From NCBI GenBank assembly GCA_000004985.1, contig GG738877.1: a stretch of 64,000 bases of DNA. One strand, given 5' to 3'. The translations under genes were made by a program, and so were the position numbers. Positions 9,978 through 64,000 of the stretch are shown in pieces. Each line of letters starts with the position of its first letter. The first letter of the stretch is position 1. The notes beneath the pieces are model-generated. The model had not been told where the DNA came from and searched no databases. It saw only the letters and a program-made list of their open reading frames with translations. Source of the DNA: Naegleria gruberi. Taxonomy: Eukaryota.

Positions 9978-10508
9978 TTTGTTGTTGATCCGAAAAGATG
10001 ATTCAAAGTTGAATGTCTTCACAAAGACTCTTTTTATCGGAGGACTTTGTGTGTGATTATTGGACAATTTAATTTAGATAATAATATGAAGTCTGGACTT
10101 TAAACTTTGGTCTGACTTGATAATTATCAACACCTTTTCTCTCTATCTTTTGCTTTTTTCTTGTTGTGTGATGAACAAAAATAGACAATTTTTTTAAAGC
10201 TTAATACTCTATAGAATTGCACCACCACAGTAAATGATAACACTCTTGGGTAGCTTACATACCACAACTATAAACACTTATAAATTTCTCGGGAATAAGA
10301 TAACAATGTAAAAAGATATTTGGAGTTGGAAAATTGAAATTTTACGTCTTCATTTCTTGAAATGATTTCAATGGAATGAGATGAGGAAAATTCCAGCTAT
10401 CGTGTCACATCAAAATTAGTGTGCTTTCATAATTTGGCGCCAAAACAAACTACAATATTGAGATGAATTGCGTTAGAAAACTTCAAGAAAAAAAACAATT
10501 GATTTGAA

Positions 10509-11282
10509 ATGAAGAATAAGATCTTGATTTTAGGTTTAGTTGCCAGTGTATTATTCATTGTTTTCATCTCTTCAGTTAAGGGTGAAGAGCCAAAGATGAA
10601 GAAACTTGCCTATTCTATTGTTGATGAAAGAAATAGGGCTAAAGAAGTTTGTTCAAAGGTTCTTGATGCTGATAAGAATCAAAAACTCTTCAAGAGATGT
10701 GTTAAGGATCTTGTTGTTATTGCAAAGAAGAGAATTAAGAAGGAGGCTCAAAAGAAGAAGAGAAAGCTTGTCAAGAATTATAAGAAGAATATTGCTCTCT
10801 TGTTAAAGTCAATCAAGGCATCAATGGCAGCTCAAACTGAAAAAGTAGATAAGCTTGTTGAATCTTTAAAGCAAAATCTTGAAAAGGAACAAGCCAAGAA
10901 GTGTGAAGTCCCAAAGCCAGCTGAAAACTCTGAAAAGAAAGTTGACGAAAAGAAGGAAGAAAAGAAACCAGAATCTCAACCATCTCCTCAATCTCCATCA
11001 AACAATCAACAACCAGCAAGTAATAACTCTCAAAATAATTCCTCCAATAATCAAAAACCAAAGAATATCAACAAGCCAACTGGAAAATCAAGAAATTCTT
11101 CCAATAAGAAGGTTAATTCTTCTTTCAAGAAAATCAAACAATTTACAAATAATACAAAGCAATCCAATACTAATTCCAATAAGAAACTTGCCAAAATTCC
11201 AAAAGCAAAGGCAGTCCAACAAGCAATTAGCAAGAATAAGCCTCTCCAAGTGAAGAATTCTTCAAAGATTATTAAGAAATAA
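10509..11282 (+). CDS. hypothetical secreted lysine-rich protein
   Basis: 257-aa ATG ORF with an N-terminal signal-like hydrophobic segment (KILILGLVASVLFIVFISSVKG). The rest is K/E-rich followed by an S/N/Q/K low-complexity tail. No domain was recognised. Confidence 0.4.
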   Translation: MKNKILILGLVASVLFIVFISSVKGEEPKMKKLAYSIVDERNRAKEVCSKVLDADKNQKLFKRCVKDLVVIAKKRIKKEAQKKKRKLVKNYKKNIALLLKSIKASMAAQTEKVDKLVESLKQNLEKEQAKKCEVPKPAENSEKKVDEKKEEKKPESQPSPQSPSNNQQPASNNSQNNSSNNQKPKNINKPTGKSRNSSNKKVNSSFKKIKQFTNNTKQSNTNSNKKLAKIPKAKAVQQAISKNKPLQVKNSSKIIKK

Positions 11283-11350
11283 ATTACTCAATGTAAATTT
11301 TAATATTCTGAGTAATTTTTAAAATAATTGGAAAATCAATTACAAAAAAA

Positions 11351-12058
11351 ATGACAACAAAACGTAGTAAGAGGAGTGTTACCGAGAAGAAAAAAATAAT
11401 ACTAGATGAAGATGATGAATTAAATGATCTATCGGAAGAAGAGGAAGAAAAAGTTGATGAAGATTCCGATTATGAAGAATCTAAAAAGAAAAAATCGAAA
11501 AAGGACAATAAAAAGGAAACCAAAAAGGAGACAAAGAAGGATAGTAAGAAGGAAAGTAAAAAGGATACAAAGAAAGATAGTAAAAAAGAGTCTTCTAAAA
11601 AAGAATCAAAAAAGAAGGAAACAAGAGAAGTTAAAAAGAAAGAAACAAAGAAGGAAACAAAATCTTCATCATCATCGGATCAAACAGCAACTTCTACAAC
11701 AAAAGGTTTATTACCTTTCAAATTAAAATTAGGATTTACAAAAGGAAAACGAAAGCGATCATTCAGACAAATTGTTTCAAAACAAGATTTAGCTAGCGAG
11801 GATGTTGATGAAAATGAATTGGAAAATCAAGATAATACAAATGGAAATCAACAACAAAATTTGACCTATTCTTCCATACAGGTTGGAAGTTTTTCACTCT
11901 ATCCTAAACCAAAATATTGTGATATTACTGGACTCTTATGTAAATATACCAATCCACACAACAAATTACAATATCATTCATCATGTATTCATCCATTAAT
12001 TTCCTCACTTTCAGAAGAAAAGATACAGCAATATCTTTCTGTGAGGTCTTTAAAATAA
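11351..12058 (+). CDS. INO80 complex subunit C (Ies6)-like protein with YL1 C-terminal motif
   Basis: 235-aa ATG ORF with a K/E/S-rich basic N-terminus. The C-terminal PKYCDITGLLCKYTNPHNKLQYHSSCIHPLISSL matches the YL1_C / Ies6 motif (human INO80C KKYSDVSGLLANYTDPQSKLRFSTIEEFSYIRRL). Confidence 0.5.
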   Translation: MTTKRSKRSVTEKKKIILDEDDELNDLSEEEEEKVDEDSDYEESKKKKSKKDNKKETKKETKKDSKKESKKDTKKDSKKESSKKESKKKETREVKKKETKKETKSSSSSDQTATSTTKGLLPFKLKLGFTKGKRKRSFRQIVSKQDLASEDVDENELENQDNTNGNQQQNLTYSSIQVGSFSLYPKPKYCDITGLLCKYTNPHNKLQYHSSCIHPLISSLSEEKIQQYLSVRSLK

Positions 12059-12158
12059 ATATTTTGTAAAATTGAAGAAATTTGAAATTGTAAATTGAAA
12101 CTTCAACGATAAATTTGGAACTAGAAAGATCTGATTTTAAGAAAAACAACAATAAAAA

Positions 12159-12968
12159 ATGTCGTCATTTGATTTACTTGCAGATGAAGATTTAATTTAT
12201 CAAAAAAAGCAACCAACAAGAAATAAGAAGAAAACAAAACAGCAACACTATGAAAAATCAATCATTCCAGAGACAGAATTTACAAAAATACACTTGAGCG
12301 AAGTTTGGGTTGTAATTTTGAAATATTTTGATTTTAAATCTCTGTATACTTCCTTTCTGTTTGTTGATAAGAAAGTGTGTGAAATTCTATACTCCCTTGA
12401 ATTCCAGAAATATATTCTTAATAGAGAATTTGAGGATGTTCTTTCTGGAGAATATGAATCAGATCACTCAGCTCTATACTCTCAAAATCAAAGCCTTCAA
12501 AGAAGTCTTATGAGAGTATTGGAAATTAATGATCGATTAAATATATTCGAATTAAGAAAGACTCATTCCAAACCAAAATCTGATCATCCACACAAAGTAT
12601 TTGAAAATTTGTTTTTTGGATTATTGAACAAGAGAACAAATTTCACAAACAGAAATATGATATTGAGGAAACTCATCAAAGTAAAGGTCAGTATTGGAAC
12701 AAGATCTGAGGTGGAATTCGACTCTTACAAAAGAGGGAAAATGAAATTATTCAGATCAGCTAATGAGAATGGTTTTGGAATGGTAGAAACAATTCCAGAT
12801 GTTCACAAAGAGGAAAGAAAACAAATGGAATGTGAACATTTCAACATTCTTGTATCAAGGAATGGAAATGATCCAGATTATCCATTCACTCTCCGTTGTA
12901 AAACATGTGATGCAACTGGACTACCTTGGCGTGATACTGTACAGAAACAAATCCAAAAGTATTTATAA
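12159..12968 (+). CDS. hypothetical protein (F-box-like N-terminal segment)
   Basis: 269-aa ATG ORF. IHLSEVWVVILKYFDFKSLYTSFLFVDKKVCEIL resembles an F-box. The C-terminus is Cys-containing (ECEHFNILVSRNGNDPDYPFTLRCKTCDATG). The 3' end overlaps the convergent dehydrogenase gene by 6 nt. Confidence 0.4.
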   Translation: MSSFDLLADEDLIYQKKQPTRNKKKTKQQHYEKSIIPETEFTKIHLSEVWVVILKYFDFKSLYTSFLFVDKKVCEILYSLEFQKYILNREFEDVLSGEYESDHSALYSQNQSLQRSLMRVLEINDRLNIFELRKTHSKPKSDHPHKVFENLFFGLLNKRTNFTNRNMILRKLIKVKVSIGTRSEVEFDSYKRGKMKLFRSANENGFGMVETIPDVHKEERKQMECEHFNILVSRNGNDPDYPFTLRCKTCDATGLPWRDTVQKQIQKYL

Positions 12969-14543
12969 AACCTTGTGTGGATTCATAATATTGTTTGGAT
13001 CGAGAGTTTTCTTGATTGATTTCATCAAATTGAGTGCAACATTGGTTTGTGAATAGTGGAGATAATTCTTTTTCAAAACTCCAATACCATGCTCTGCTGA
13101 AATACTTCCTCTATGCTTGCTTGTCCATTCATAGACATATGGTTCAATAGTTTCCTTAATTTGTTTTTCAAATTTTGGTGAGACAATGTTCAAGTGGAGA
13201 TTTTCATCACCCAAATGTCCAAAACTGTAAACCTTTGCTTGTGGGAAGACTTTCATTCTCTCCTTCATATCCAATACAATGTCATACATTTTGGCGAGTG
13301 GAATTGAAATGTCATACTTGTACACATAGCCATCCTTTTTCAATGATTCTGAAACCAACTCTCTAAATTTCCAAAGATATTGCGATTGTTTTTCATCAAA
13401 TGCTAAACTTCCATCAGTGGCTACTCCTTCTTCTAAGGCCTTTGCAAAGAAATCATTTAATTTTTCTTCATCGTGCTCTTTAGAACTTCCTTGTGTTTCA
13501 ATGACGAGATAGAATGGATGTTCTCCCTCAACTGGTGGTTGAAGAGTTTCATGATTTAATCTCATTACCAATTTCATACTATCACTATCAACAAACTCAA
13601 CAGCAGATAATATTTCACCCAACTCTCTCTTTGCCATTAAAATTAATTCTTGAACTTTTTCAAATGATTCAACGGAAATAAGAGCTACATTGACAGATTT
13701 TGGTTTGATTGGAACTTGAAGAGCTACTTTTGTAATAATTCCCAAAGTTCCTTCACTTCCAACAAATAAATGTGATAAATGATAACCAGTATTATCCTTT
13801 CTAATTTCCTTAATTGAATCCATAATTGAGCCATCTGGTAAAACACATTCCAAACCAAGTAAATTCGAATGTAATGAACCAAATTTAACATATCTAATAC
13901 CTCCAGCACCTGTTGCAATATTACCACCAATTTGACAACTTCCTTTAGCAGCCAAATCAAGTGGCATTTGATATCCCTTCTCTTCCAAAGTATGATTTAA
14001 ATGTTCTAAAATACAACCAGATTGACAAATCAATTTTCCACTCTTATCATTAAATGAAATAATTTCATTCATTAAATTTGTACTCAAAATGATTTGAGGT
14101 CTATGTTCAATTTGTTCATTTACAGGTATTCCACCACCTACTAAACCAGTATTTCCTCCCTGTGGAATAATAACAATATTATTCTCATTACAATATTTTA
14201 CAATTTTTGAAACTTGTTCAGTTGTTCTAGGTCTCAAAACAAGTTCGGAAGCTCCTTTAAATTGACCTGTCCAATCATGATTAAAAGCCATATCAATTTC
14301 ATTAGGATTATATAAAACTTCACCTCCTTTCTTTGTTGTTGAAGTGTCCTCATCAAAAATCCTTTTAATTTCATCTACATGTTTCCTATCGAGAGTTAGA
14401 GCAATATTATTGGAATGAAACAATCGTTGGAATGTTGTGCTCATTCCCTTGCCACTAGTATTTTTCAATTTGAATAGAAGATGATGATTATTATTATTTG
14501 ATGCTAATAAAACAGCACGACAAAGGCTTTTATGAATAAACAT
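12963..14543 (-). CDS. FAD-linked oxidase: D-2-hydroxyglutarate dehydrogenase / D-lactate dehydrogenase family, mitochondrial
   Basis: 526-aa ATG ORF with an N-terminal presequence-like region. ASELVLRPRTTEQVSKIVKYCNENNIVIIPQGGNTGLVGGGIPV matches the FAD-binding PCMH domain of human D2HGDH ([41 protein letters not shown]). The C-terminal FAD-oxidase domain is present (…EHGIGVLKKNYL…). Confidence 0.75.
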   Translation of the reverse strand: MFIHKSLCRAVLLASNNNNHHLLFKLKNTSGKGMSTTFQRLFHSNNIALTLDRKHVDEIKRIFDEDTSTTKKGGEVLYNPNEIDMAFNHDWTGQFKGASELVLRPRTTEQVSKIVKYCNENNIVIIPQGGNTGLVGGGIPVNEQIEHRPQIILSTNLMNEIISFNDKSGKLICQSGCILEHLNHTLEEKGYQMPLDLAAKGSCQIGGNIATGAGGIRYVKFGSLHSNLLGLECVLPDGSIMDSIKEIRKDNTGYHLSHLFVGSEGTLGIITKVALQVPIKPKSVNVALISVESFEKVQELILMAKRELGEILSAVEFVDSDSMKLVMRLNHETLQPPVEGEHPFYLVIETQGSSKEHDEEKLNDFFAKALEEGVATDGSLAFDEKQSQYLWKFRELVSESLKKDGYVYKYDISIPLAKMYDIVLDMKERMKVFPQAKVYSFGHLGDENLHLNIVSPKFEKQIKETIEPYVYEWTSKHRGSISAEHGIGVLKKNYLHYSQTNVALNLMKSIKKTLDPNNIMNPHKVL

Positions 14544-14724: not shown

Positions 14725-16163
14725 TTAATGATCCGAGTAGTCACCATTCTCATGGTTTTGTTCATTGTCAACATGTTGATGAGGATGATGAAGTGTATCA
14801 TGAGTTGTTGGAATGAGGTTGGTAGTTGAAGGATTAATGCCAGGAACTATTGGGTCATGTTTCATGAGCTTTCTTTGTCTACGTTCTTCTGAATGTTCAT
14901 GGTCAGAATCTTCATCACTTGACGACCAATCATTCTTTCTTCGTTTCTTATCATTTTCAGTCATATCTGTGAAAGGTTTATGATGAGCTCCCAGCGTCGA
15001 TGTTGGTTCTTTTTTCTTGGTTGATTTGGTCTTAGAGGAATATTGTGGTTGACTATAATATGGATCAGTAATTTGTGCAACTGGAGGGAATTTAGAACTT
15101 TGAGCTAAATGGTTTACAGCATATTGACCTGTACCAGTTGCTGGATTGATTGAGGGAGCTGTTGACGCGTAAGCTTTACCTCCTCCCAAAATTGGAGTCC
15201 TAGATGGATTAATACGAATATTTCTATTTCCAAGAAGTGTACCAGAACATTCTAAAGCTTTGTTTCTAGATTCCATATGTAAAAATTCCACAAATGCAAA
15301 TCGTGCACTATGTACTGCATCTCCAGCCAAAACAACTTTAGTAACAGGACCACAATTAGCATCAAAAAATTCTTTAAGATCATCTTCTGTCAATGAAATA
15401 TCAGCATTTCCTACATAAACAGTTCTATTAATTTGATCATGATGGGCAGGAGTAAATGAATAAACAGCACCATTTCCAACAGCACCTGGTGTAGGCTGAA
15501 TTGGTGTCCTCGATCCTAAAATGCGTAGGGCATATCTTCCAAGAAATTGACCAGACAAGGAAACAGCTGCTTGTGCACTTTCCTTCTGTTCAAATTCAAA
15601 AAAGGCAAATCTTGTTGGATGTTGAGTGTCTCCACATACTCTGTAATTTACAATTCTGCCACAGTATGAGAAGAACTCACATACTTGAGCTTCCAATATT
15701 TGTGTATCAATACTTGTTACATAAATTGTTCTCTTGATTTTATCATCTTCCTCAGCCTTCCTCTTTAATTCCGATTCTGAAAGAAATTGATATTTTGTTG
15801 CATTATCATCTGTAGGTGAAATTTGAGTTGGATTTGATTGTACAGGTGTTGGATTAGAGATTGGACTACGACTTAGGGATATTTTCAAATGTTTACCAAG
15901 AATTTCTGTTCCGCTAAGTTCGATAGCTACTTTTGCCTCCTCACTTGATGAGAATTCTACAAATGCGTATTTATTTGTTGGCTCTCTAATCATGGTTGTA
16001 TTTTGTTGTTGTTGTTGATATTTCCCCATAATACAATTTTTTCATGTACTTACCCAGCTATCTTTACGTTGCAAATAGTCCCGCAGTCGTCAAAGAAAGT
16101 TTTGATTAACTCTTCGTTAAATTCTGCTGGAAGATTGGAAACGTAGATTGTGCGTCCAGACAT
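14725..16163 (-). CDS. RNA-binding protein with three RRM domains; 2 exons
   Basis: Exon 1 (16054-16163) encodes MSGRTIYVSNLPAEFNEELIKTFFDDCGTICNVKIAG (RNP2 plus beta2). A GTAAGT donor opens a 68-nt intron (15986-16053) with a TAG acceptor. Exon 2 (14725-15985) continues EPTNKYAFVEF… (RNP1). Two further RRMs follow (RFAFFEFEQKESAQAAV and RFAFVEFLHMESRNKALEC). The total is 1371 nt. Alternatively translation could start at the in-frame ATG at 16029 inside the proposed intron. Confidence 0.55.
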
Positions 16164-16563
16164 TTTTTTTGCAGTTGTTTATTGTTGGAATGATTTTTTA
16201 CTTTCCGTCGCTGTTGTAACCTCTTTAATAAATTATTCTGTATTCACTCTATATTGTAATAATATTAATATTGAATTGATCGTCATCATAGTTCTTGCTT
16301 CTTGTTCCGATAACTTATCACATTATTTAAAAATCTCTCATCAAATAGATGAATTGACCAACAATGAACTGGATATGAAAGAGGCTCATTCAGTTTCTGA
16401 ATAAAGACCACATGACGAAAGTATCAATAGATATTATATTATTACAATTTTATTCTCTATAGAAATTTACAGGTAGATTATAAATTAATCTTGATCTAAA
16501 ATAATTTTGTTCAATTAATTTAGCAAATAATTATGTGATTTGTTATTGATGATCAAGATCGTC

Positions 16564-33142: not shown

Positions 33143-35005
33143 ATGGCGAACAGAAAGCTTATGGCTGAGGTCGATAGGACCGTAAAAAAAGTGAATGAAG
33201 GTATTGAAAACTTTGATGAATTGGAAGAAAAAGTATATAGTGCCCAAAGTTCTTCGCAAAGGGATAAATTTGAAGGAGAATTGAAAAAGGAAATTAAAAA
33301 ACTACAACGTCTGAGAGAAACAATACGTGGCTGGATATCTGGTAATGAAATTAAAGACAAGGAATTACTGGTGGAAAAGAGGCAACAGATTGAAACAAGA
33401 ATGGAAAGGTTCAAGAAATGCGAGCAGAAAACCAAGATGAAGGCCTATTCTAAAGAAGCCCTGAGTAAAAGTCAAGTCGAAAAACGAAGTAGGAACAAAC
33501 AAAATATTATTCCTGACTCGAAAGAGAAGAAGCAAGCTAAGAAATGGCTGAAGGATATGATAGAAACACTGACGAACGCTGTTGATTCAATTGAAGAAAA
33601 AATTGAAGAAGAAGAAGAAAAGGAAAAGAAGAAGGATGGAGATATGATTGAATCGCATCGATCACGTCAAAGAAAACATGAGGAATATATTGATAAGTTA
33701 AACCAAGTTTACGAGTTTTTGGATAATGATGAAGGTATTACACCTCAAGATTTGGAAGAACTTAAGGAATATGTAGAATACTATGTAGATGAAAATGAAG
33801 AAGCTGAATTTGTGGAAGATGATGATTCATTTGAAACAATATTCAAAAAACATAAGGAATGGGAAGAATCAGCACCAAAGGAGGAACTCGTGGATGTTGA
33901 TGAAGTCAAGGATAGTATTAAAAATTCTGATGAATATGATGATGAAGATTCTGATGAAGGGTTTGATGAAGACTTGGATTCGGATGATGATGATGGTTCA
34001 AGTAATGTTGACGATGATGAAGATTTAAGTTCTCCAATATCAACATCTTCAAAAGATGATGATAAGAAGAAGAAATCTCCTCCTAATACAACACCTGTTG
34101 TTAATGTGAATCCATCGATAACGAAACCTTCAGGAAGTAATCTCACAGTTACAGCTGTTGTATCAAAAGACAAGAAAATTACCAAACAAGCACCTCCAGC
34201 TATTTCTACCTCTCCTAACCAACCATCCACCACCCAACAACCAAGTGGTCAAGTTACTCCAAACACTACCACTCCAACAACAACTAAACCATCTTATAGT
34301 GATTTAGTTAAGTCTCCAAAAACTCCTCTTCAACCACAACAACCAACTCCAACCAATACTTCCACAACAGCAACAACAACAAAACAAGCTGCTACTACTA
34401 CTACAACAGCAACAACAGCATCAGGTTCTACGACTCCAACATCTACCACTATCAAAAAGCCTGCTGTTTCATATATTGATATTGCTCAACAAAATAAGAA
34501 TGCTCCACAAGGTCACAATTTAACAGTTTCTATTAGTGATTCAAATAAGCAACAAGTAACAACACCAACAGTTGCAGCTACAACACCAACAACAACAAGT
34601 AATAAGAATGCTAAACAACAAGCTACAACAACAACAACAGCAACAGCAACTACAACAGCTACAAAGCAGCAACCAACCACAAAGGGTCAACCTGCTCAAC
34701 CAACCAAAAAAGCTCAAACTAATGCCAACCAAAGTACCACCCCAACTAGNNNNNNNNNNNNNNNNNNNNNNNNNNNNNNNNNNNNNNNNNNNNNNNNNNC
34801 AAACCAACTCTCACAACTAATGATTATGAACAATGAACCTATGTTTACTTTGATTTTGAAACACTTTGGTGTCAAAGAATTAAGGATGGTTTCAGTTTTG
34901 AATATGCTTTCCTTGAAGATGAATTGTAAATCCTGTGCAAACTCTTTCCCAACTCCTCATTCCCCCCTTAGTTACCTTTTTATTGACAAAACCTTTCTGA
35001 GATGA
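33143..35005 (+). CDS. CCR4-NOT complex subunit 3/5 (NOT3/NOT5)-like; interrupted by 50-N gap at 34750-34799
   Basis: The N-terminus [108 protein letters not shown] matches the Not3/Not5 N-terminal domain (human CNOT3 [29 protein letters not shown]…[27 protein letters not shown]…[25 protein letters not shown]). An acidic region and a T/P/Q/A-rich low-complexity region follow. The sequence after the gap (to stop 35005) has no NOT-box, so the C-terminal end is uncertain. Confidence 0.55.
   Translation: [620 protein letters not shown]
34750..34799. other. assembly gap (50 N) inside CNOT3-like coding region
   Basis: The N run is seen directly, and it is flanked by T/P/Q-rich low-complexity coding sequence. 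Confidence 0.95.
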
Positions 35006-48138: not shown

Positions 48139-48354
48139 TTAACATCATAATGACCTTTCAATTCACTCTCTCAACACTTCAAATTTGAATAACGAAAAAC
48201 TTTGTTTATATTATGAAATGATTGGAATTCTAATCACTTTCTATCCCATATATTGTCCACTTACCCATTAACTTCCAATCACGTTCAATCTAAAAATACA
48301 AAACAAAATATTGAAAAAAACATCACCAAACATCATCAAAAGGCTTTGAAAAGG

Positions 48355-49440
48355 ATGATGAATAATCAAAACCAACAACAACAAGGAACATTTCCATTTG
48401 ATAGTGCCATTCTATCTGATAATTCACAATATACCTATGGAGGAGAACAATCGTGTACATATATTTGTTTAACTGCTATTGAATACTTTTTAAATAATTA
48501 TTCCAAGTTTAGAATTCCGATTTCATCATCAACATCAAAAGATCTTAAAATTACAAAGAATGATATTGATTATGTATTACAATTAGGTGTTTCAAGAGAT
48601 AGAAAAGTTGGACTAACATCATGTGATGATGTTTATTCTAATAACGAATATTTTCAAAAAACACTTGAATTGAAATCAATGCACATTTCAAAATTAAGTG
48701 ATAGTCTTTCTTTTAAACAATTACTTAAAGAAATGGAATCAAAATCAATTGATACAAAATCATCAAGTGATGTAACTGCTCTAGTTTTAACTAAACCACC
48801 TGAAACTATTGCTATATTTTATGATTGTTATGGTTATTTAAATGGAAAAGAGAATGAATATTATCCATGGTTTATATTTGATTCACATCCAAGAAAATAT
48901 AGTAGAGGTGGTGGTTTTTATTTATTTAAGGATTTATCTAAAATTGAACAATATTTGAAAAAATTATTTATTGATGATTTTGATTATTATAGAAATATGT
49001 TTGATTCTTATCAAGCTAAATCTCATGTCATGTTTGAAGGTACTATTGTAACATTAAAACCTCTTTCAAATTTGAAAACTATTCAACCACCACAAACTGT
49101 AAATCAACCACAAATTGTAAATAGTCCAAGTCAACCAGTCAAACAAGAATCAAACATTCCAAATAATACTAATAATAATAGCACTCCAAAAGAATCTCAA
49201 AAACAAGTAATAGTTCAACAACAACCAGTAGATCAAAATCAATTGATTGAACAATTAATGAAAAAGATTGATCAATTAACACAAGTTAACAAACAACAAT
49301 TTGAAGAAATTCAAACACTTACCTACTTGTTAAAAGAAGAACAAGAAAATCATCAAAGAACTGCATTAGAAAATCAAAAGCTTAAAAAATCAACCAAACA
49401 ACAAGAAAATGTAATTGATAAGATTTTCTCTTCCTTTTAA
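48355..49440 (+). CDS. hypothetical protein with C-terminal coiled coil
   Basis: The track ORF starts at TTG 48253, and the first ATG is at 48355 (MMNNQNQQQQGTFPFD…). A Cys-containing middle region is followed by a Q/N-rich region and a coiled-coil tail. No domain was recognised. Confidence 0.35.
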   Translation: MMNNQNQQQQGTFPFDSAILSDNSQYTYGGEQSCTYICLTAIEYFLNNYSKFRIPISSSTSKDLKITKNDIDYVLQLGVSRDRKVGLTSCDDVYSNNEYFQKTLELKSMHISKLSDSLSFKQLLKEMESKSIDTKSSSDVTALVLTKPPETIAIFYDCYGYLNGKENEYYPWFIFDSHPRKYSRGGGFYLFKDLSKIEQYLKKLFIDDFDYYRNMFDSYQAKSHVMFEGTIVTLKPLSNLKTIQPPQTVNQPQIVNSPSQPVKQESNIPNNTNNNSTPKESQKQVIVQQQPVDQNQLIEQLMKKIDQLTQVNKQQFEEIQTLTYLLKEEQENHQRTALENQKLKKSTKQQENVIDKIFSSF

Positions 49441-49697: not shown

Positions 49698-50913
49698 ATG
49701 AAAAGATTATCAACAATCATATTTATAATTTCTTGTATTTTGTTATTCTTTACTTTAATAACATCAACAAAGGCTGATGATGATGGATTATGTTTAATGA
49801 CTAGTAATGGATTTGAGAATGGAACAAATAATTTCCCAACAGTTAAGAATAGTGTACCTTTTTATTTGGATCCACAAGCTTCATCATCTCTTGGAACAAT
49901 TTGTCCACATTTAGTTGGTCAAAAAGTTTGTTGTAATTCTACTCAAGTTTCTACAATGGTTTCTCGTTTTACACTTTTAGATGCAACGTATGTTGTTTTA
50001 ATATTATGTAATAGTTTTAATTGTTATATGAAATTGTGTTACAATGATTGTACAATCACATTTGGAATTTCATTGAACATTTGGATTAATCTATTGATTA
50101 ATATTTATCAAATATATTTTAATGATAATTGTTTTAATATTGATATGAAAAATTAGATTTTGGCGTTGTATTGCTTGTGTTTTAAATTTAAAGAAAATGT
50201 GGTGTGATTTTACATGCAGTAATCAACAAGGACATTTTCTTACCATTGAATCAATGTATGAAACACCAAAATATGCTCAATATATTAAGGAAGTTAATTT
50301 TTATGTTTCATTAGATTTCCAAAATCAAATTTGGGAAAGTTGTAAAGATGTTAAATTAGGTCAATTACCAGTTAAAGATACATATGCAAATGTTAGAGCT
50401 TATTTACAAGGAATGGTAAATTTAGCAGTTCCAAATCCAAATATTCAATACATTTTCCAAACAAGTGAATCACATCTTGAAAAACTTACAATTACAAAAA
50501 ATATTACAAAAACACCACTCAGATATGATCAATCACCAAATTATGAAGATATTTCAGTTCCATCAGTAGAACATTACAAAACTAGAAAAATTCAAGATTT
50601 CAATAATTCAACAACTCAATTTTATAATGGAACAATGTTAGCATGTGAATTATCATGTGATTGTACATATTGTGAAAAGGCTTGTGGAACAATTACACCT
50701 GATTATTCATGTAAAATCTTTGGATCACCATGTTTTGTTGTTGCATCAATTGGTGGAAGTGTTATTTTAGGTTTATTTATTATTGCAATCATTTCTGCTC
50801 TATTCGAAAGAGGTTTTAATTGGTTTAGAAATAGAAATAACAAAACGAATGAAAATATTGAAGTTAATCAAGAAAATTCTTTAAATTCAGATAGAAGATA
50901 TAGAACATTTTAA
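49698..50913 (+). CDS. stand-alone NPC1 N-terminal (sterol-binding) domain protein with single C-terminal TM; 2 exons
   Basis: ATG at 49698 with a signal peptide (MKRLSTIIFIISCILLFFTLITSTKA). Exon 1 ends at about 49985, and an AT-rich intron of about 200 nt precedes exon 2 (about 50190-50913). DGLCLMTSNGFENG…ICPHLVGQKVCCNSTQ…MWCDFTCSNQQGHFL…KEVNFYVSLDFQNQIWESCKDV…CELSCDCTYCEKAC parallels the human NPC1 NTD CVWYGECG…LCPGFFFGNVSLCCDVRQ…LFCELTCSPRQSQFL…[22 protein letters not shown]…CSCQDCSIVC. A TM helix follows (VVASIGGSVILGLFIIAIISALF), then a short tail and the stop. Confidence 0.55.
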
Positions 50914-52230: not shown

Positions 52231-52994
52231 ATGTCATCATCAAATGAAATTGAACAATCCAATGAATTGGAAGCACTCCAATCAATTTATCCAACAGAAT
52301 TAACTATTAATTCATCAACAAATTTTAAAATTGAAATTTATCCCTATACAGTCGAATCGGAAACAGAAACTAATAGTGTTGGTATTACATTGGAAGTTAA
52401 TTATACTCCTGATTATCCAGAATCAGTTATACCTTCATTTGAAATTTATAATACAAGAGGTTCTATTACAAAACGTGAAATGAGTGAATTAAAAGACATG
52501 TTAATAGAAACAGCTAATCAATTTTTAGGTACATCATGTGTATTTACTATTGCTAGTACAATTCAAGAATATTTAGTTCAATATCAACAACGTGAATCTG
52601 CTCTAAATGAACAAGATAATTCATCATCTTAACAACAAAGAATGATGAAACATCATCAAAGGATAGATTTACAATGGATTCTGAAGTATTAGCATCAAAT
52701 ATTGGACGAGGAACACCTGTTACTATTGAAAACTTTAGAGAGTGGCGTGATAAATTTGTTGTTGAACAAAAGAAAATTATGGAAAAACAAAGAATTGAAA
52801 AGGCTAAGAAATTACCAGGTCCTAAAAGTGGTAGAGAAATATTTGAAGAACGTCAACAACTTTTGATCAGTAAAATTGGTGAAGCAGCTGCTGCTAATCA
52901 ATACGTTGAAGAGGATGATATTGATGAAGATTTATTCTTGGAAGATGAAGATGAAGAAGAAGTCAATAATGAAGATGAACAAGATGAAGAATAA
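52231..52994 (+). CDS. RWD-domain protein (RWDD1/Gir2-like), copy A; reading frame broken by 1-nt deletion near 52630
   Basis: ATG at 52231. The N-terminal RWD domain is NELEALQSIYPTELTINSSTNFKIEIYPYTV…LEVNYTPDYPESVIPSFEIY. Track ORFs 52231-52632 and 52674-52994 are the two halves in frames differing by -1. Copy B (61946-62470) reads through as …NEQDNSSSLTTKNDETSSKDRF… with one extra base. The downstream part GTPVTIENFREWRDKF…AKKLPGPKSGREIFEE matches human RWDD1 GTPVTIENFLNWKAKF. Confidence 0.55.
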
Positions 52995-54354
52995 ACTATT
53001 TATACAGTTTATTTTGTTTATTATTATTGAAATATTTGTTGTTGGATTGTGAACTTTTGGTAATTCTTTCATCATTACAATTTTATTTAAAATTTAAAGA
53101 AAAATTCATCACAATCGATCAGCCTAAACAATTCACACAACAATAAGAAGTGCACTAAAATAATCGGAAGATGACATCTAATCAAATTAATCATAATGAA
53201 AATATCATAAATAATAACAACATGTTATTAGAAGAATTACCTAATGAAATACTTTGTTTAATATTAGATCATTTTGAATTTAAATTTCTATTTCACAATT
53301 ATAGATTAATATGTAAAAAATTTAATTTTATTATTTGTAATGAATTGAGATGTTCATGTTCAATTGTTAAAACTATGAATATAATTAATAGTGATGAAAA
53401 TATTAAATCTTTTATTTCATGTTGTGAAAATAATTGTTTAAATTCAATTACAAGTTTAAAAAATATTAAACCTCATAGTATGTTAATTATTTAATTATTT
53501 AATTANNNNNNNNNNNNNNNNNNNNNNNNNNNNNNNNNNNNNNNNNNNNNNNNNNNNNNNNNNNNNNNNNNNNNNNNNNNNNNNNNNNNNNNNNNNNNNN
53601 NNNNNNNNNNNNNNNNNNNNNNNNNNNNNNNNNNNNNNNNNNNNNNNNNNNNNNNNNNNNNNNNNNNNNNNNNNNNNNNNNNNNNNNNNNNNNNNNNNNN
53701 NNNNNNNNNNNNNNNNNNNNNNNNNNNNNNNNNNNNNNNNNNNNNNNNNNNNNNNNNNNNNNNNNNNNNNNNNNNNNNNNNNNNNNNNNNNNNNNNNNNN
53801 NNNNNNNNNNNNNNNNNNNNNNNNNNNNNNNNNNNNNNNNNNNNNNNNNNNNNNNNNNNNNNNNNNNNNNNNNNNNNNNNNNNNNNNNNNNNNNNNNNNN
53901 NNNNNNNNNNNNNNNNNNNNNNNNNNNNNNNNNNNNNNNNNNNNNNNNNNNNNNNNNNNNNNNNNNNNNNNNNNNNNNNNNNNNNNNNNNNNNNNNNNNN
54001 NNNNNNNNNNNNNNNNNNNNNNNNNNNNNNNNNNNNNNNNNNNNNNNNNNNNNNNNNNNNNNNNNNNNNNNNNNNNNNNNNNNNNNNNNNNNNNNNNNNN
54101 NNNNNNNNNNNNNNNNNNNNNNNNNNNNNNNNNNNNNNNNNNNNNNNNNNNNNNNGAATGATGAATTTCATCCATTTTTGAAAATTTAACAAATTTAGAA
54201 TCTTTAATTTTATCAAAAAATAATTTTAAGAAACTTGATTTTTCAAACTTAACAAAATTAGATTTAAATGGAAACAAAAATTTAGAATTTGTTGATTTAT
54301 CTAATTGTAAATTAACATATTTAGATTTATCATTTACTAAAATTGGAAGCGAAA
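52471..54354. repeat. duplicated block, copy A (continues to at least 54719 on this side)
   Basis: 52471-53505 matches 61946-62981, and 54156-54354 matches 63801-64000. The only differences are a 1-nt indel near 52630, a G/A substitution near 52663, and a 1-nt indel near 54170. The sequence corresponding to B 62982-63800 lies in A's N gap. Confidence 0.85.
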
Positions 54355-59187: not shown

Positions 59188-60384
59188 NNNNNNNNNNNNN
59201 NNNNNNNNNNNNNNNNNNNNNNNNNNNNNNNNNNNNNNNNNNNNNNNNNNNNNNNNNNNNNNNNNNNNNNNNNNNNNNNNNNNNNNNNNNNNNNNNNNNN
59301 NNNNNNNNNNNNNNNNNNNNNNNNNNNNNNNNNNNNNNNNNNNNNNNNNNNNNNNNNNNNNNNNNNNNNNNNNNNNNNNNNNNNNNNNNNNNNNNNNNNN
59401 NNNNNNNNNNNNNNNNNNNNNNNNNNNNNNNNNNNNNNNNNNNNNNNNNNNNNNNNNNNNNNNNNNNNNNNNNNNNNNNNNNNNNNNNNNNNNNNNNNNN
59501 NNNNNNNNNNNNNNNNNNNNNNNNNNNNNNNNNNNNNNNNNNNNNNNNNNNNNNNNNNNNNNNNNNNNNNNNNNNNNNNNNNNNNNNNNNNNNNNNNNNN
59601 NNNNNNNNNNNNNNNNNNNNNNNNNNNNNNNNNNNNNNNNNNNNNNNNNNNNNNNNNNNNNNNNNNNNNNNNNNNNNNNNNNNNNNNNNNNNNNNNNNNN
59701 NNNNNNNNNNNNNNNNNNNNNNNNNNNNNNNNNNNNNNNNNNNNNNNNNNNNNNNNNNNNNNNNNNNNNNNNNNNNNNNNNNNNNNNNNNNNNNNNNNNN
59801 NNNNNNNNNNNNNNNNNNNNNNNNNNNNNNNNNNNNNNNNNNNNNNNNNNNNNNNNNNNNNNNNNNNNNNNNNNNNNNNNNNNNNNNNNNNNNNNNNNNN
59901 NNNNNNNNNNNNNNNNNNNNNNNNNNNNNNNNNNNNNNNNNNNNNNNNNNNNNNNNNNNNNNNNNNNNNNNNNNNNNNNNNNNNNNNNNNNNNNNNNNNN
60001 NNNNNNNNNNNNNNNNNNNNNNNNNNNNNNNNNNNNNNNNNNNNNNNNNNNNNNNNNNNNNNNNNNNNNNNNNNNNNNNNNNNNNNNNNNNNNNNNNNNN
60101 NNNNNNNNNNNNNNNNNNNNNNNNNNNNNNNNNNNNNNNNNNNNNNNNNNNNNNNNNNNNNNNNNNNNNNNNNNNNNNNNNNNNNNNNNNNNNNNNNNNN
60201 NNNNNNNNNNNNNNNNNNNNNNNNNNNNNNNNNNNNNNNNNNNNNNNNNNNNNNNNNNNNNNNNNNNNNNNNNNNNNNNNNNNNNNNNNNNNNNNNNNNN
60301 NNNNNNNNNNNNNNNNNNNNNNNNNNNNNNNNNNNNNNNNNNNNNNNNNNNNNNNNNNNNNNNNNNNNNNNNNNNNNNNNNNNN
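59188..60384. other. assembly gap (1197 N)
   Basis: The N run is seen directly. It lies between the 56757-58895 gene and tRNA-Gln. Confidence 0.95.
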
Positions 60385-61895: not shown

Positions 61896-61945
61896 NNNNN
61901 NNNNNNNNNNNNNNNNNNNNNNNNNNNNNNNNNNNNNNNNNNNNN
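61896..61945. other. assembly gap (50 N) truncating the xanthine dehydrogenase gene and abutting duplicated block copy B
   Basis: The N run is seen directly. The sequence on the two sides belongs to unrelated genes (XDH exon 4 versus the RWD-protein C-terminus). Confidence 0.95.
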
Positions 61946-62470
61946 AAACGTGAAATGAGTGAATTAAAAGACATGTTAATAGAAACAGCTAATCAATTTT
62001 TAGGTACATCATGTGTATTTACTATTGCTAGTACAATTCAAGAATATTTAGTTCAATATCAACAACGTGAATCTGCTCTAAATGAACAAGATAATTCATC
62101 ATCATTAACAACAAAGAATGATGAAACATCATCAAAAGATAGATTTACAATGGATTCTGAAGTATTAGCATCAAATATTGGACGAGGAACACCTGTTACT
62201 ATTGAAAACTTTAGAGAGTGGCGTGATAAATTTGTTGTTGAACAAAAGAAAATTATGGAAAAACAAAGAATTGAAAAGGCTAAGAAATTACCAGGTCCTA
62301 AAAGTGGTAGAGAAATATTTGAAGAACGTCAACAACTTTTGATCAGTAAAATTGGTGAAGCAGCTGCTGCTAATCAATACGTTGAAGAGGATGATATTGA
62401 TGAAGATTTATTCTTGGAAGATGAAGATGAAGAAGAAGTCAATAATGAAGATGAACAAGATGAAGAATAA
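61946..62470 (+). CDS. RWD-domain protein (RWDD1-like), copy B, 5'-truncated by gap, intact frame
   Basis: Continuous frame …KREMSELKDMLIETANQFLGTSCVFTIASTIQEYLVQYQQRESALNEQDNSSSLTTKNDETSSKDRFTMDSEVLASNIGRGTPVTIENFREWRDKF…EDEQDEE* ending at 62468-62470. The track ORF 61871-62470 is extended through the N gap in a frame unrelated to the XDH exon upstream. Confidence 0.5.
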   Translation, partial: KREMSELKDMLIETANQFLGTSCVFTIASTIQEYLVQYQQRESALNEQDNSSSLTTKNDETSSKDRFTMDSEVLASNIGRGTPVTIENFREWRDKFVVEQKKIMEKQRIEKAKKLPGPKSGREIFEERQQLLISKIGEAAAANQYVEEDDIDEDLFLEDEDEEEVNNEDEQDEE

Positions 62471-62646
62471 ACTATTTATACAGTTTATTTTGTTTATTAT
62501 TATTGAAATATTTGTTGTTGGATTGTGAACTTTTGGTAATTCTTTCATCATTACAATTTTATTTAAAATTTAAAGAAAAATTCATCACAATCGATCAGCC
62601 TAAACAATTCACACAACAATAAGAAGTGCACTAAAATAATCGGAAG

Positions 62647-64000
62647 ATGACATCTAATCAAATTAATCATAATGAAAATATCATAAATAATAACAACATG
62701 TTATTAGAAGAATTACCTAATGAAATACTTTGTTTAATATTAGATCATTTTGAATTTAAATTTCTATTTCACAATTATAGATTAATATGTAAAAAATTTA
62801 ATTTTATTATTTGTAATGAATTGAGATGTTCATGTTCAATTGTTAAAACTATGAATATAATTAATAGTGATGAAAATATTAAATCTTTTATTTCATGTTG
62901 TGAAAATAATTGTTTAAATTCAATTACAAGTTTAAAAAATATTAAACCTCATAGTATGTTAATTATTTAATTATTTAATTAATTTTTGTAATTTTTAAAA
63001 GGCTTGTTAAAGAAAATTCATTTATTAAAAAATTTAACAAATTTAGAAATTTCAAATTGTAATTTAAAATTAATTCAAATAGAAAATTTACAACATTTAC
63101 AAAATTTAACTTGTCATTTTGGAGATGATTATAAAAATACTTCAAATTTAGTACTTAATTTTAAAAATTTAAAATCATTAAATATTAATTATTTTACAAA
63201 AGATACTTTATCTAAAATGGCAAATTTAAATTTAGAAAAATTAATTCTTTCTTATAATGTTATGGAAGATGATTTAGAAAATTTAACTTTAAATAGCAAT
63301 TTAAAATATTTACACATTTCAAATATTTATAATTTAAATGGAAAACAAATTTATAAATTTAAAAATTTAAATTTTTTAAAATTAACTAATTATACTAAAT
63401 TGGATGAAAAAGAATTAAATCAATTTTATAAATCTTTATTAGAATTAAAATATTTAAAAAATATTGAATTTTATCTTACATTAACTGATGAATTTTTTAA
63501 TTATTGTAATCAATTACCATCTTTAGCAAGTTTAATATTACATAATGGTATTAATAATGGTATTAATAGTATTAATATTAATAATAATAATTTAAAAAAT
63601 TTAGAAATTTATTGCGATTCTTTAAAAAATTTAAAAATTTCAAATAATTTACAAAATTTAAATTTAAATTGTAAAAATATTGAAAATGTTGAATTTAATT
63701 CAATTAAAAATTTACAAATTTCAAATTCTAATTTTAATTGTATTAAAAATGTTGATAATTTAACAAAAACAACAAATTTAAGTTTAACTAACATGTCAAT
63801 GAATGATGAATTTTCATCCATTTTTGAAAATTTAACAAATTTAGAATCTTTAATTTTATCAAAAAATAATTTTAAGAAACTTGATTTTTCAAACTTAACA
63901 AAATTAGATTTAAATGGAAACAAAAATTTAGAATTTGTTGATTTATCTAATTGTAAATTAACATATTTAGATTTATCATTTACTAAAATTGGAAGCGAAA
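62647..64000 (+). CDS. F-box / leucine-rich-repeat protein, copy B (runs off window end)
   Basis: Exon 1 is 62647-62953. A GTATGT donor opens a 48-nt intron (62954-63001) with an AAG acceptor. Exon 2 runs from 63002 to beyond 64000. It is stop-free, which is why it is absent from the ORF track, and it encodes about 330 aa of LRRs (…NLTNLEISNCNLKLIQIENLQHLQNL…LKSLNINYFTKDTL…NLKYLHISNIYNL…NLKNLEIYCDSLKNLKISNNLQNLNLNC…LTNLESLILSKNNFKKLDFSNLTKLDLNGNKNLEFVDLSNCKLTYLDLSFTKIGSE). Confidence 0.5.

Follow-up and report, generated by a model that had tools for sequence, protein, structure and literature searches.

The gene at positions 49698..50913 of the plus strand analysed here most likely encodes one subunit, the free-standing N-terminal domain (NTD), of an NPC1 sterol exporter that is split between two genes in Naegleria gruberi. 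Its product is a type-I membrane protein, made of a signal peptide, a disulfide-rich lumenal NTD of about 260 residues, a single transmembrane (TM) helix and a tail of 35 residues. As judged from alignment with a profile of full-length NPC1, this is the module formed by the signal peptide, the NTD and TM1 of full-length NPC1. In what follows the window is the whole 64-kb stretch of DNA that was analysed.

A split NPC1 in the literature

The two-gene layout is already known, as it was described in 2016, N. gruberi included. Adebali et al. (2016; Genet Med, PMC4990510) found that the NPC1 of N. gruberi and of most chromalveolates lacks the NTD and has 12 TM segments, and that all such organisms encode a separate NTD homologue of about 300 residues with a predicted signal peptide and a C-terminal TM segment. 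This separate protein is restricted to organisms with the short NPC1, and the two, once concatenated, resemble human NPC1, which suggested an interaction. For the NTD-less body of N. gruberi this one paper is the source: a word-indexed protein search with a profile of 15 NPC1 sequences returned four proteins, none of them from Naegleria, and a search of this kind also missed the N. fowleri orthologue, which is 48% identical. In the Phytophthora papers the NPC1s are fused.

The present gene falls in the ~300-residue class and combines a signal peptide, NTD homology and a single C-terminal TM segment, and it is almost certainly the very protein that Adebali et al. had in mind. Since the separate NTD protein occurs only together with the short NPC1, we can therefore understand the gene as the missing piece of the sole NPC1 system of this organism. 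An earlier note on this DNA, written from the letters alone, must be amended here in two respects. It knew of no described family with such an architecture, when exactly this class of protein, with N. gruberi named, appears in PMC4990510; and it envisaged an extra paralogue beside a full-length NPC1, when the NPC1 of N. gruberi is given there as NTD-less, so that a split subunit is what we most likely have.

For such a split there is a precedent from an experiment in human cells: as shown by Trinh et al. (2018; eLife, PMC6062155), a human fragment made of the NTD, TM1 and a lysosomal signal, together with ΔNTD-NPC1, reconstitutes lysosomal cholesterol export in trans. By analogy with this reconstitution, the Naegleria NTD protein would interact with the short NPC1.

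Gene structure and translation start

The gene is made of two exons, separated by an intron of 169 nt, and its product has 348 residues. The open frame begins with ATG 49698, the earliest ATG, and is closed by a TAA at 50911-50913:

49698..49987 (+): exon 1, residues 1-96 plus 2 nt of codon 97, with the donor GTATGT at 49988
49988..50156 (+): single intron, 169 nt, GT..AG, ending in TTAG
50157..50913 (+): exon 2, residues 97-348 plus TAA

The intron has a GC content of 18%, against 27-29% in the exons. A splice scan of the locus gave 13 GT..AG pairs that leave the frame open; the 12 others were rejected, as 49988/50156 is alone in combining a good donor with an intact conserved block FWRCxAC. 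The exon junction reads LLDAT/FWRCIACVLN and is free of gaps in alignment with the orthologues of N. fowleri, Willaertia, Acrasis and Pharyngomonas. The NCBI model (P0001, 315 residues, annotated 'predicted protein' of N. gruberi) is identical to our translation over all 315 residues (100% identity), with the same junction and the same stop, which places the window in N. gruberi. The coordinates of the earlier note were exact.

The 5′ end of the public model is another matter. The NCBI/UniRef sequence begins at M34 and leaves out the signal peptide and the invariant C32 (49698..49796, residues 1-33). In the orthologues of N. fowleri, Willaertia magna, Acrasis kona and Pharyngomonas kirbyi, and in an MMETSP transcript, a hydrophobic leader is followed by an invariant cysteine; this first cysteine is C32 (human C25), two residues ahead of M34. 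Because all of them have the leader and the cysteine upstream of the position of M34, ATG 49698 is the better start. It is therefore worth emphasizing that the start of the public N. gruberi model should be moved 33 codons upstream, which gives back to the protein its signal peptide and a conserved disulfide cysteine. At the other end the stop codon is supported by the conservation of the C-terminus with N. fowleri (RRYRTF-stop against HRYSTFN-stop).

Homology to the NPC1 N-terminal domain

The NPC1_N homology claimed in the earlier note, for which it had proposed a profile search and a structure prediction, came out clearly. Pfam NPC1_N (PF16414) matches with 101.2 bits (gathering cutoff 27; E=9.9e-29) and is the sole Pfam family reported, while matches among the sequences of the PDB are to NPC1, NCR1 and NPC1L1 only, the human NPC1 NTD (3gkh) having E=1.3e-10. 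The C-terminal part of the domain was recovered with the full-length NPC1 profile. The relevant features are as follows:

49791..50364 (+): core NPC1_N match, residues 32-166, across the intron; profile positions 4-142 of 244
50464..50616 (+): lineage-specific insertion seen in the alignment, residues about 200-250, bearing N-glycosylation sequons
50656..50685 (+): CDCTYCEKAC block at the end of the NTD; C264, C266, C269 and C273 correspond to human C238/C240/C243/C247

The core match includes C32, C69, C78-C79, Q83, C101, C104, C113, C117, Q121 and C159. Identity to the human NTD is about 23% (the human NPC1 reference used in the alignment is 100% identical to 3jd8), and 13 of the 18 human NTD cysteines have a counterpart here that is invariant among the orthologues and human. 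More widely, the scaffold cysteines are shared by 42-49 of 49 homologues. The human domain reportedly contains nine disulfides, as Kwon and colleagues are said to have found in 2009; two of these nine, the pairs C31/C42 and C177/C184, are absent here, and C260 is shifted with respect to human C227. Among the motif blocks that the earlier note had read as those of NPC1, ICP..CCNSTQ, WCDFTCS..HFL and CDCTYCEKAC are indeed there; the CxxxGxC block had to be given up, as only C32 is kept and its second cysteine (human C31) is absent.

The pocket of the human domain includes Q79, P202/F203 and N41, the last of which contacts the 3β-OH of the sterol. In the Naegleria protein Q83 (human Q79; glutamine in 43/49 homologues) and P191 (human P202, invariant in the alignment of the orthologues with human) are retained, and Q121 is also invariant in that alignment, where human N41 is not conserved. 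As N41 is not conserved and two of the human disulfides are missing, ligand specificity could differ from that of the human protein. The insertion at residues about 200-250 is found in Naegleria and Willaertia, not in Acrasis, Pharyngomonas or human.

Predicted fold and the nature of the ligand

An AlphaFold2 (AF2) model computed from an alignment of 49 sequences (mean pLDDT 84.3, pTM 0.70) predicts the three-dimensional fold of an NPC1 NTD. A Foldseek comparison with the PDB gave 12 significant matches, all from the NPC1 family, with TM-scores, normalised to the NTD crystals, of 0.72 for human 3gkh (E=3e-12), 0.75 for yeast 9f40 and 0.70 for NPC1L1 3qnt. The best matches are those of yeast Ncr1, 9f40 and 8qec (E=1.5e-13 and 8.7e-13). 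In the model the insertion forms a beta-hairpin of low confidence (pLDDT 53-61).

The missing N41, the two absent disulfide loops and the 50-residue insertion invite one to ask whether this cysteine-rich, folate-receptor-like fold of NPC1 NTDs was reused for another ligand, a vitamin or some other lipid. Among structures outside the NPC1 family folate receptor alpha is indeed the nearest, but the match is weak (4lrh, E=0.25, TM-score about 0.3) when set against the E=1e-12 to 1e-13 of the NPC1-family NTDs. Membership in the folate receptor/riboflavin-binding family was rejected on the same values, and no match to Pfam Folate_rec was found at E≤1. Conservation of Q83 together with the whole cysteine scaffold, and the co-occurrence of the protein with an NTD-less NPC1 (PMC4990510), argue in the same direction, and we hold a non-sterol ligand to be very improbable. 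Sterol hand-off in the manner of the NPC1 NTD, which the earlier note had put forward, is still the best functional reading.

Membrane anchor and C-terminal tail

Kyte-Doolittle hydropathy shows two hydrophobic segments only, at residues 1-27 and about 283-318, and around these the protein is organized as follows:

49698..49775 (+): signal peptide, residues 1-26 (MKR, 19 hydrophobic residues and STKA, then DDD)
50710..50733 (+): cysteine pair CKIFGSPC (C282, C289) adjoining the membrane, where human NPC1 has a poly-proline linker
50734..50805 (+): the one TM helix (residues 290-313), counterpart of TM1 in full-length NPC1
50806..50910 (+): cytosolic tail, residues 314-348 (35 residues); a basic stop-transfer stretch RGFNWFRNRNNK comes first, then a disordered segment
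50899..50910 (+): C-terminal YRTF, a tyrosine-based sorting motif of the YxxΦ type and a putative endolysosomal targeting signal

Cleavage of the signal peptide was read by eye, T at -3 and A at -1 fitting the -3/-1 rule. AF2 places a helix at residues 289-333, and against the full-length NPC1 profile the TM segment falls on the TM1 region (positions about 265-290). Hydropathy, AF2 and the NPC1 profile thus agree with what the earlier note had seen as a signal peptide, an NTD, one TM helix and a short tail, the length of the latter being 35 residues instead of 40. Just ahead of the TM segment the membrane-adjacent cysteine pair is present in 16 of 49 homologues, with the consensus PDYxCxIFGxxC, and it may form a rigid, disulfide-stapled stalk.

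The very end of the tail deserves attention. Close homologues terminate in YSTF-N, YEKI-VN, YTPM-H, YSTI-QE, YTPV-Q or YNTV-NE, or else in acidic dileucines, EMSSLL-H, ERSRLL-Q or ETSSLL-VRQ. A C-terminal YxxΦ or acidic-dileucine motif was counted in 10 of 34 stand-alone homologues, against 1.4±1.2 in shuffled tails, and none of 2000 shuffles reached 10; this count takes related sequences as if they were independent, and 0/2000 is not to be read as a true probability. Such tails are consistent with a need for a separate endolysosomal address on each subunit, as in the construct of Trinh et al.

The search for a transporter body in the window

A hidden Markov model of full-length NPC1 was built from 15 proteins and has 1273 nodes. 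The protein is colinear with nodes 10-299 (E=6.6e-43), from the leader through the NTD and the CxCxxCxxxC block to TM1 and the basic stop-transfer residues, where it stops. A full-length NPC1, Ncr1 or NPC1L1 has the sterol-sensing domain (SSD) and a Patched-type 12-TM body in the same polypeptide; this one ends after TM1. When the six-frame ORFs of the 64-kb window were scanned with the model, no SSD/Patched body was found: these two exons alone matched, the rest having E>0.01, and no match beyond position 300 of the model appeared anywhere in the window. A weak match at 16147-16401 (E=0.03), in a short hydrophobic intergenic ORF, was discarded as noise.

The next ORF downstream starts with ATG 50979, 66 nt past the stop; it is rich in asparagine, unrelated, and has no Pfam match. 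Further downstream come ORFs for an RWD/DFRP_C protein, an F-box protein, an acyl-CoA dehydrogenase, one without Pfam match, and a 2Fe-2S protein (Fer2). The earlier note was thus right that the protein ends without SSD or transporter domains and that the gene downstream is unrelated.

One might nevertheless suspect that the gene model is an artefact: an ordinary full-length NPC1 gene would begin with these two exons and have its body exons further downstream or hidden in the assembly gaps at 53506-54155 and 59188-60384. These gaps, of 650 and 1197 nt, could not however hold a body of about 1000 residues, and unrelated genes of the same strand lie between. The TAA directly follows a tail whose C-terminus is conserved in N. 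fowleri, an unrelated ORF begins only 66 nt later, the full-length profile found nothing else in the 64 kb at E<0.01, and short transcripts with a complete ORF exist in Pharyngomonas, in the MMETSP organism and in Anaeramoeba. Taken with these points, the artefact is so improbable as to be close to refuted.

The surroundings of the gene call for a few further remarks. Upstream, an ORF of 395 residues without Pfam match (48253..49440, +) shows a Cys...His arrangement (CTYICLTAIEYF ... FIFDSHPR) reminiscent of cysteine peptidases of the papain-like or deubiquitinase type, and then a glutamine-rich coiled-coil tail. The window has four assembly gaps (runs of N at 34750..34799, 53506..54155, 59188..60384 and 61896..61945), and ORFs that run across them are artefacts. 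Two pairs of blocks, 52471..53505 with 61946..62981 and 54156..54354 with 63801..64000, are near-identical (99.5-99.8%) and about 9.5 kb apart; each abuts a run of N, and they contain the 3′ part of the RWD/DFRP_C gene and the F-box gene. The likely cause is redundancy in the assembly, although a segmental duplication of very recent date is possible.

Relatives of the stand-alone domain

A HMMER scan of 1.84 billion representative sequences gave 523 matches at E≤1e-3. Ranks 1-24 are all short proteins or fragments, the earliest full-length NPC1 coming at rank 25, and dozens of matches, 260-370 residues long, begin with a hydrophobic leader and have a single TM segment at the C-terminal end. 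The layout of signal peptide, NTD and TM segment recurs in N. fowleri, Willaertia, Acrasis, Pharyngomonas, an MMETSP transcript, Perkinsela and Anaeramoeba; the named members belong to Heterolobosea, Perkinsela and Anaeramoeba, to which one aphelid transcript should be added. Transcripts with a complete ORF of this short layout come from Pharyngomonas, the MMETSP organism and Anaeramoeba ignava.

A short protein of the same layout also appears in the sea louse Caligus rogercresseyi (ACO10372.1, P0062, 306 residues), under the name 'Niemann-Pick C1 protein precursor' and derived from cDNA. A fused NPC1 is expected in an animal, and this entry may stem from a truncated cDNA, from an alternative transcript or from contamination.

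The orthologue of N. fowleri, UniProt A0A6A5BFF9 (FDP41_009014, P0151; 401 residues, 48% identical), has been seen by mass spectrometry. It is up-regulated in amoebae isolated from brain, and it figures among host-induced proteins with the label 'NPC1-like transporter'. The label suggests a full transporter, but with 401 residues the protein is the NTD subunit only; among the entries listed in the supplements of PMC11964265, NPC1-type names cover the NTD protein only.

Proposed mechanism and a possible independent receptor

A possible course of events in the cell can be sketched as follows. The signal peptide would be cut after A26 and the NTD glycosylated. The C-terminal YRTF would then route the NTD protein, independently of any partner, to endolysosomes or phagolysosomes, where the pocket, with Q83 and P191 kept, would take up a sterol, presumably from an NPC2/ML-domain protein. 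Finally the NTD would hand this sterol over to the separately encoded body that contains the SSD, the TM helix sitting beside the body as TM1 does in fused NPC1. Sterol binding, localisation and interaction with the body are here predictions.

The protein might instead be, as the earlier note had it, an autonomous receptor or shuttle for sterols or other lipids, acting alone or with NPC2-like proteins and with no hand-off to an NPC1 body; in one variant, it might sit at the plasma membrane or in phagosomes and capture sterol of prey or host. The protein has a sorting signal of its own, and no linked Patched-family gene was found in the window. Nor does any Patched-family gene adjoin the stand-alone NTD gene of an unrelated eukaryotic metagenome contig (L001). 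The restriction of the separate NTD protein to organisms with an NTD-less NPC1 (PMC4990510) nevertheless speaks for two proteins that work as a pair, the TM segment lines up with TM1 of fused NPC1, and in human cells an NTD fragment co-expressed with a ΔNTD body restored export (PMC6062155). We consider such an autonomous receptor unlikely. On contig L001 a product of 1263 residues (10378..14169, -) is encoded about 1 kb downstream of the NTD gene; its size is NPC1-like, and no Pfam, Patched or SSD match is recorded for it.

One may go one step further and imagine that the NTD is not just a fragment of NPC1 but is deployed apart from its body, for example in phagosomes or food-cups, where it would catch sterol of prey or host; up-regulation of the N. 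fowleri orthologue would then point to a host-cholesterol scavenging factor. Such separate deployment is conceivable because the protein carries its own sorting signal, but we give it only a slim chance. If it were true, an exposed lumenal or extracellular NTD that is only about 23% identical to that of human NPC1 and bears a lineage-specific insertion could be a target.

Comparison with known systems

With regard to the split of NPC1, there is no new discovery here. The protein of Adebali et al. (2016) comes from the same organism, belongs to the same size class (about 300 residues, against 348 here), and has a signal peptide, homology to the human NPC1 NTD and a C-terminal TM segment. Nothing substantive differs, that paper being without gene model, motif or structural detail for the NTD protein. 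The practical gains are modest: a corrected start, the tail signals of the family, and an 'NPC1-like transporter' of N. fowleri recast as an NTD subunit.

Among the relatives, that N. fowleri protein is alike in its architecture and in its C-terminal RY-TF ending; it differs by a longer N-terminal leader and a larger insertion. The comparison with human NPC1 (NTD and TM1, 3gkh/3gki; cryo-EM structure 3jd8) extends to the fold, to 13 of 18 cysteines, to Q79 and P202, and to the following TM segment, which is aligned to TM1. The Naegleria protein, by contrast, is without the C31-C42 and C177-C184 loops and without N41, has an insertion of 50 residues and a cysteine pair in place of the poly-proline linker, and no covalent link connects its NTD to TM2-13, the MLD, the CTD or the SSD. 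At its C-terminus it has a YxxΦ motif of its own, where NPC1 has a dileucine. The NTD of yeast Ncr1 (9f40, bound to ergosterol; 8qec) is the best structural match, although Ncr1 itself is fused and full-length. Since Naegleria makes ergosterol-type sterols, yeast Ncr1 is probably the more relevant ligand model.

The closest parallel to the two-gene arrangement remains an artificial one. The construct of Trinh et al. (2018) is of identical design, an NTD, one TM segment and a lysosomal signal expressed apart from the body. That construct is man-made and human, whereas the Naegleria protein is the product of a natural gene whose function would be assigned by analogy. We can therefore see in this gene the natural counterpart of that split, with the sterol-accepting head made as a separate polypeptide, which supports the view that hand-off from the NTD to the body may proceed without a covalent link. 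The gene also bears on whether the NPC1 of ancestral eukaryotes was fused or split.
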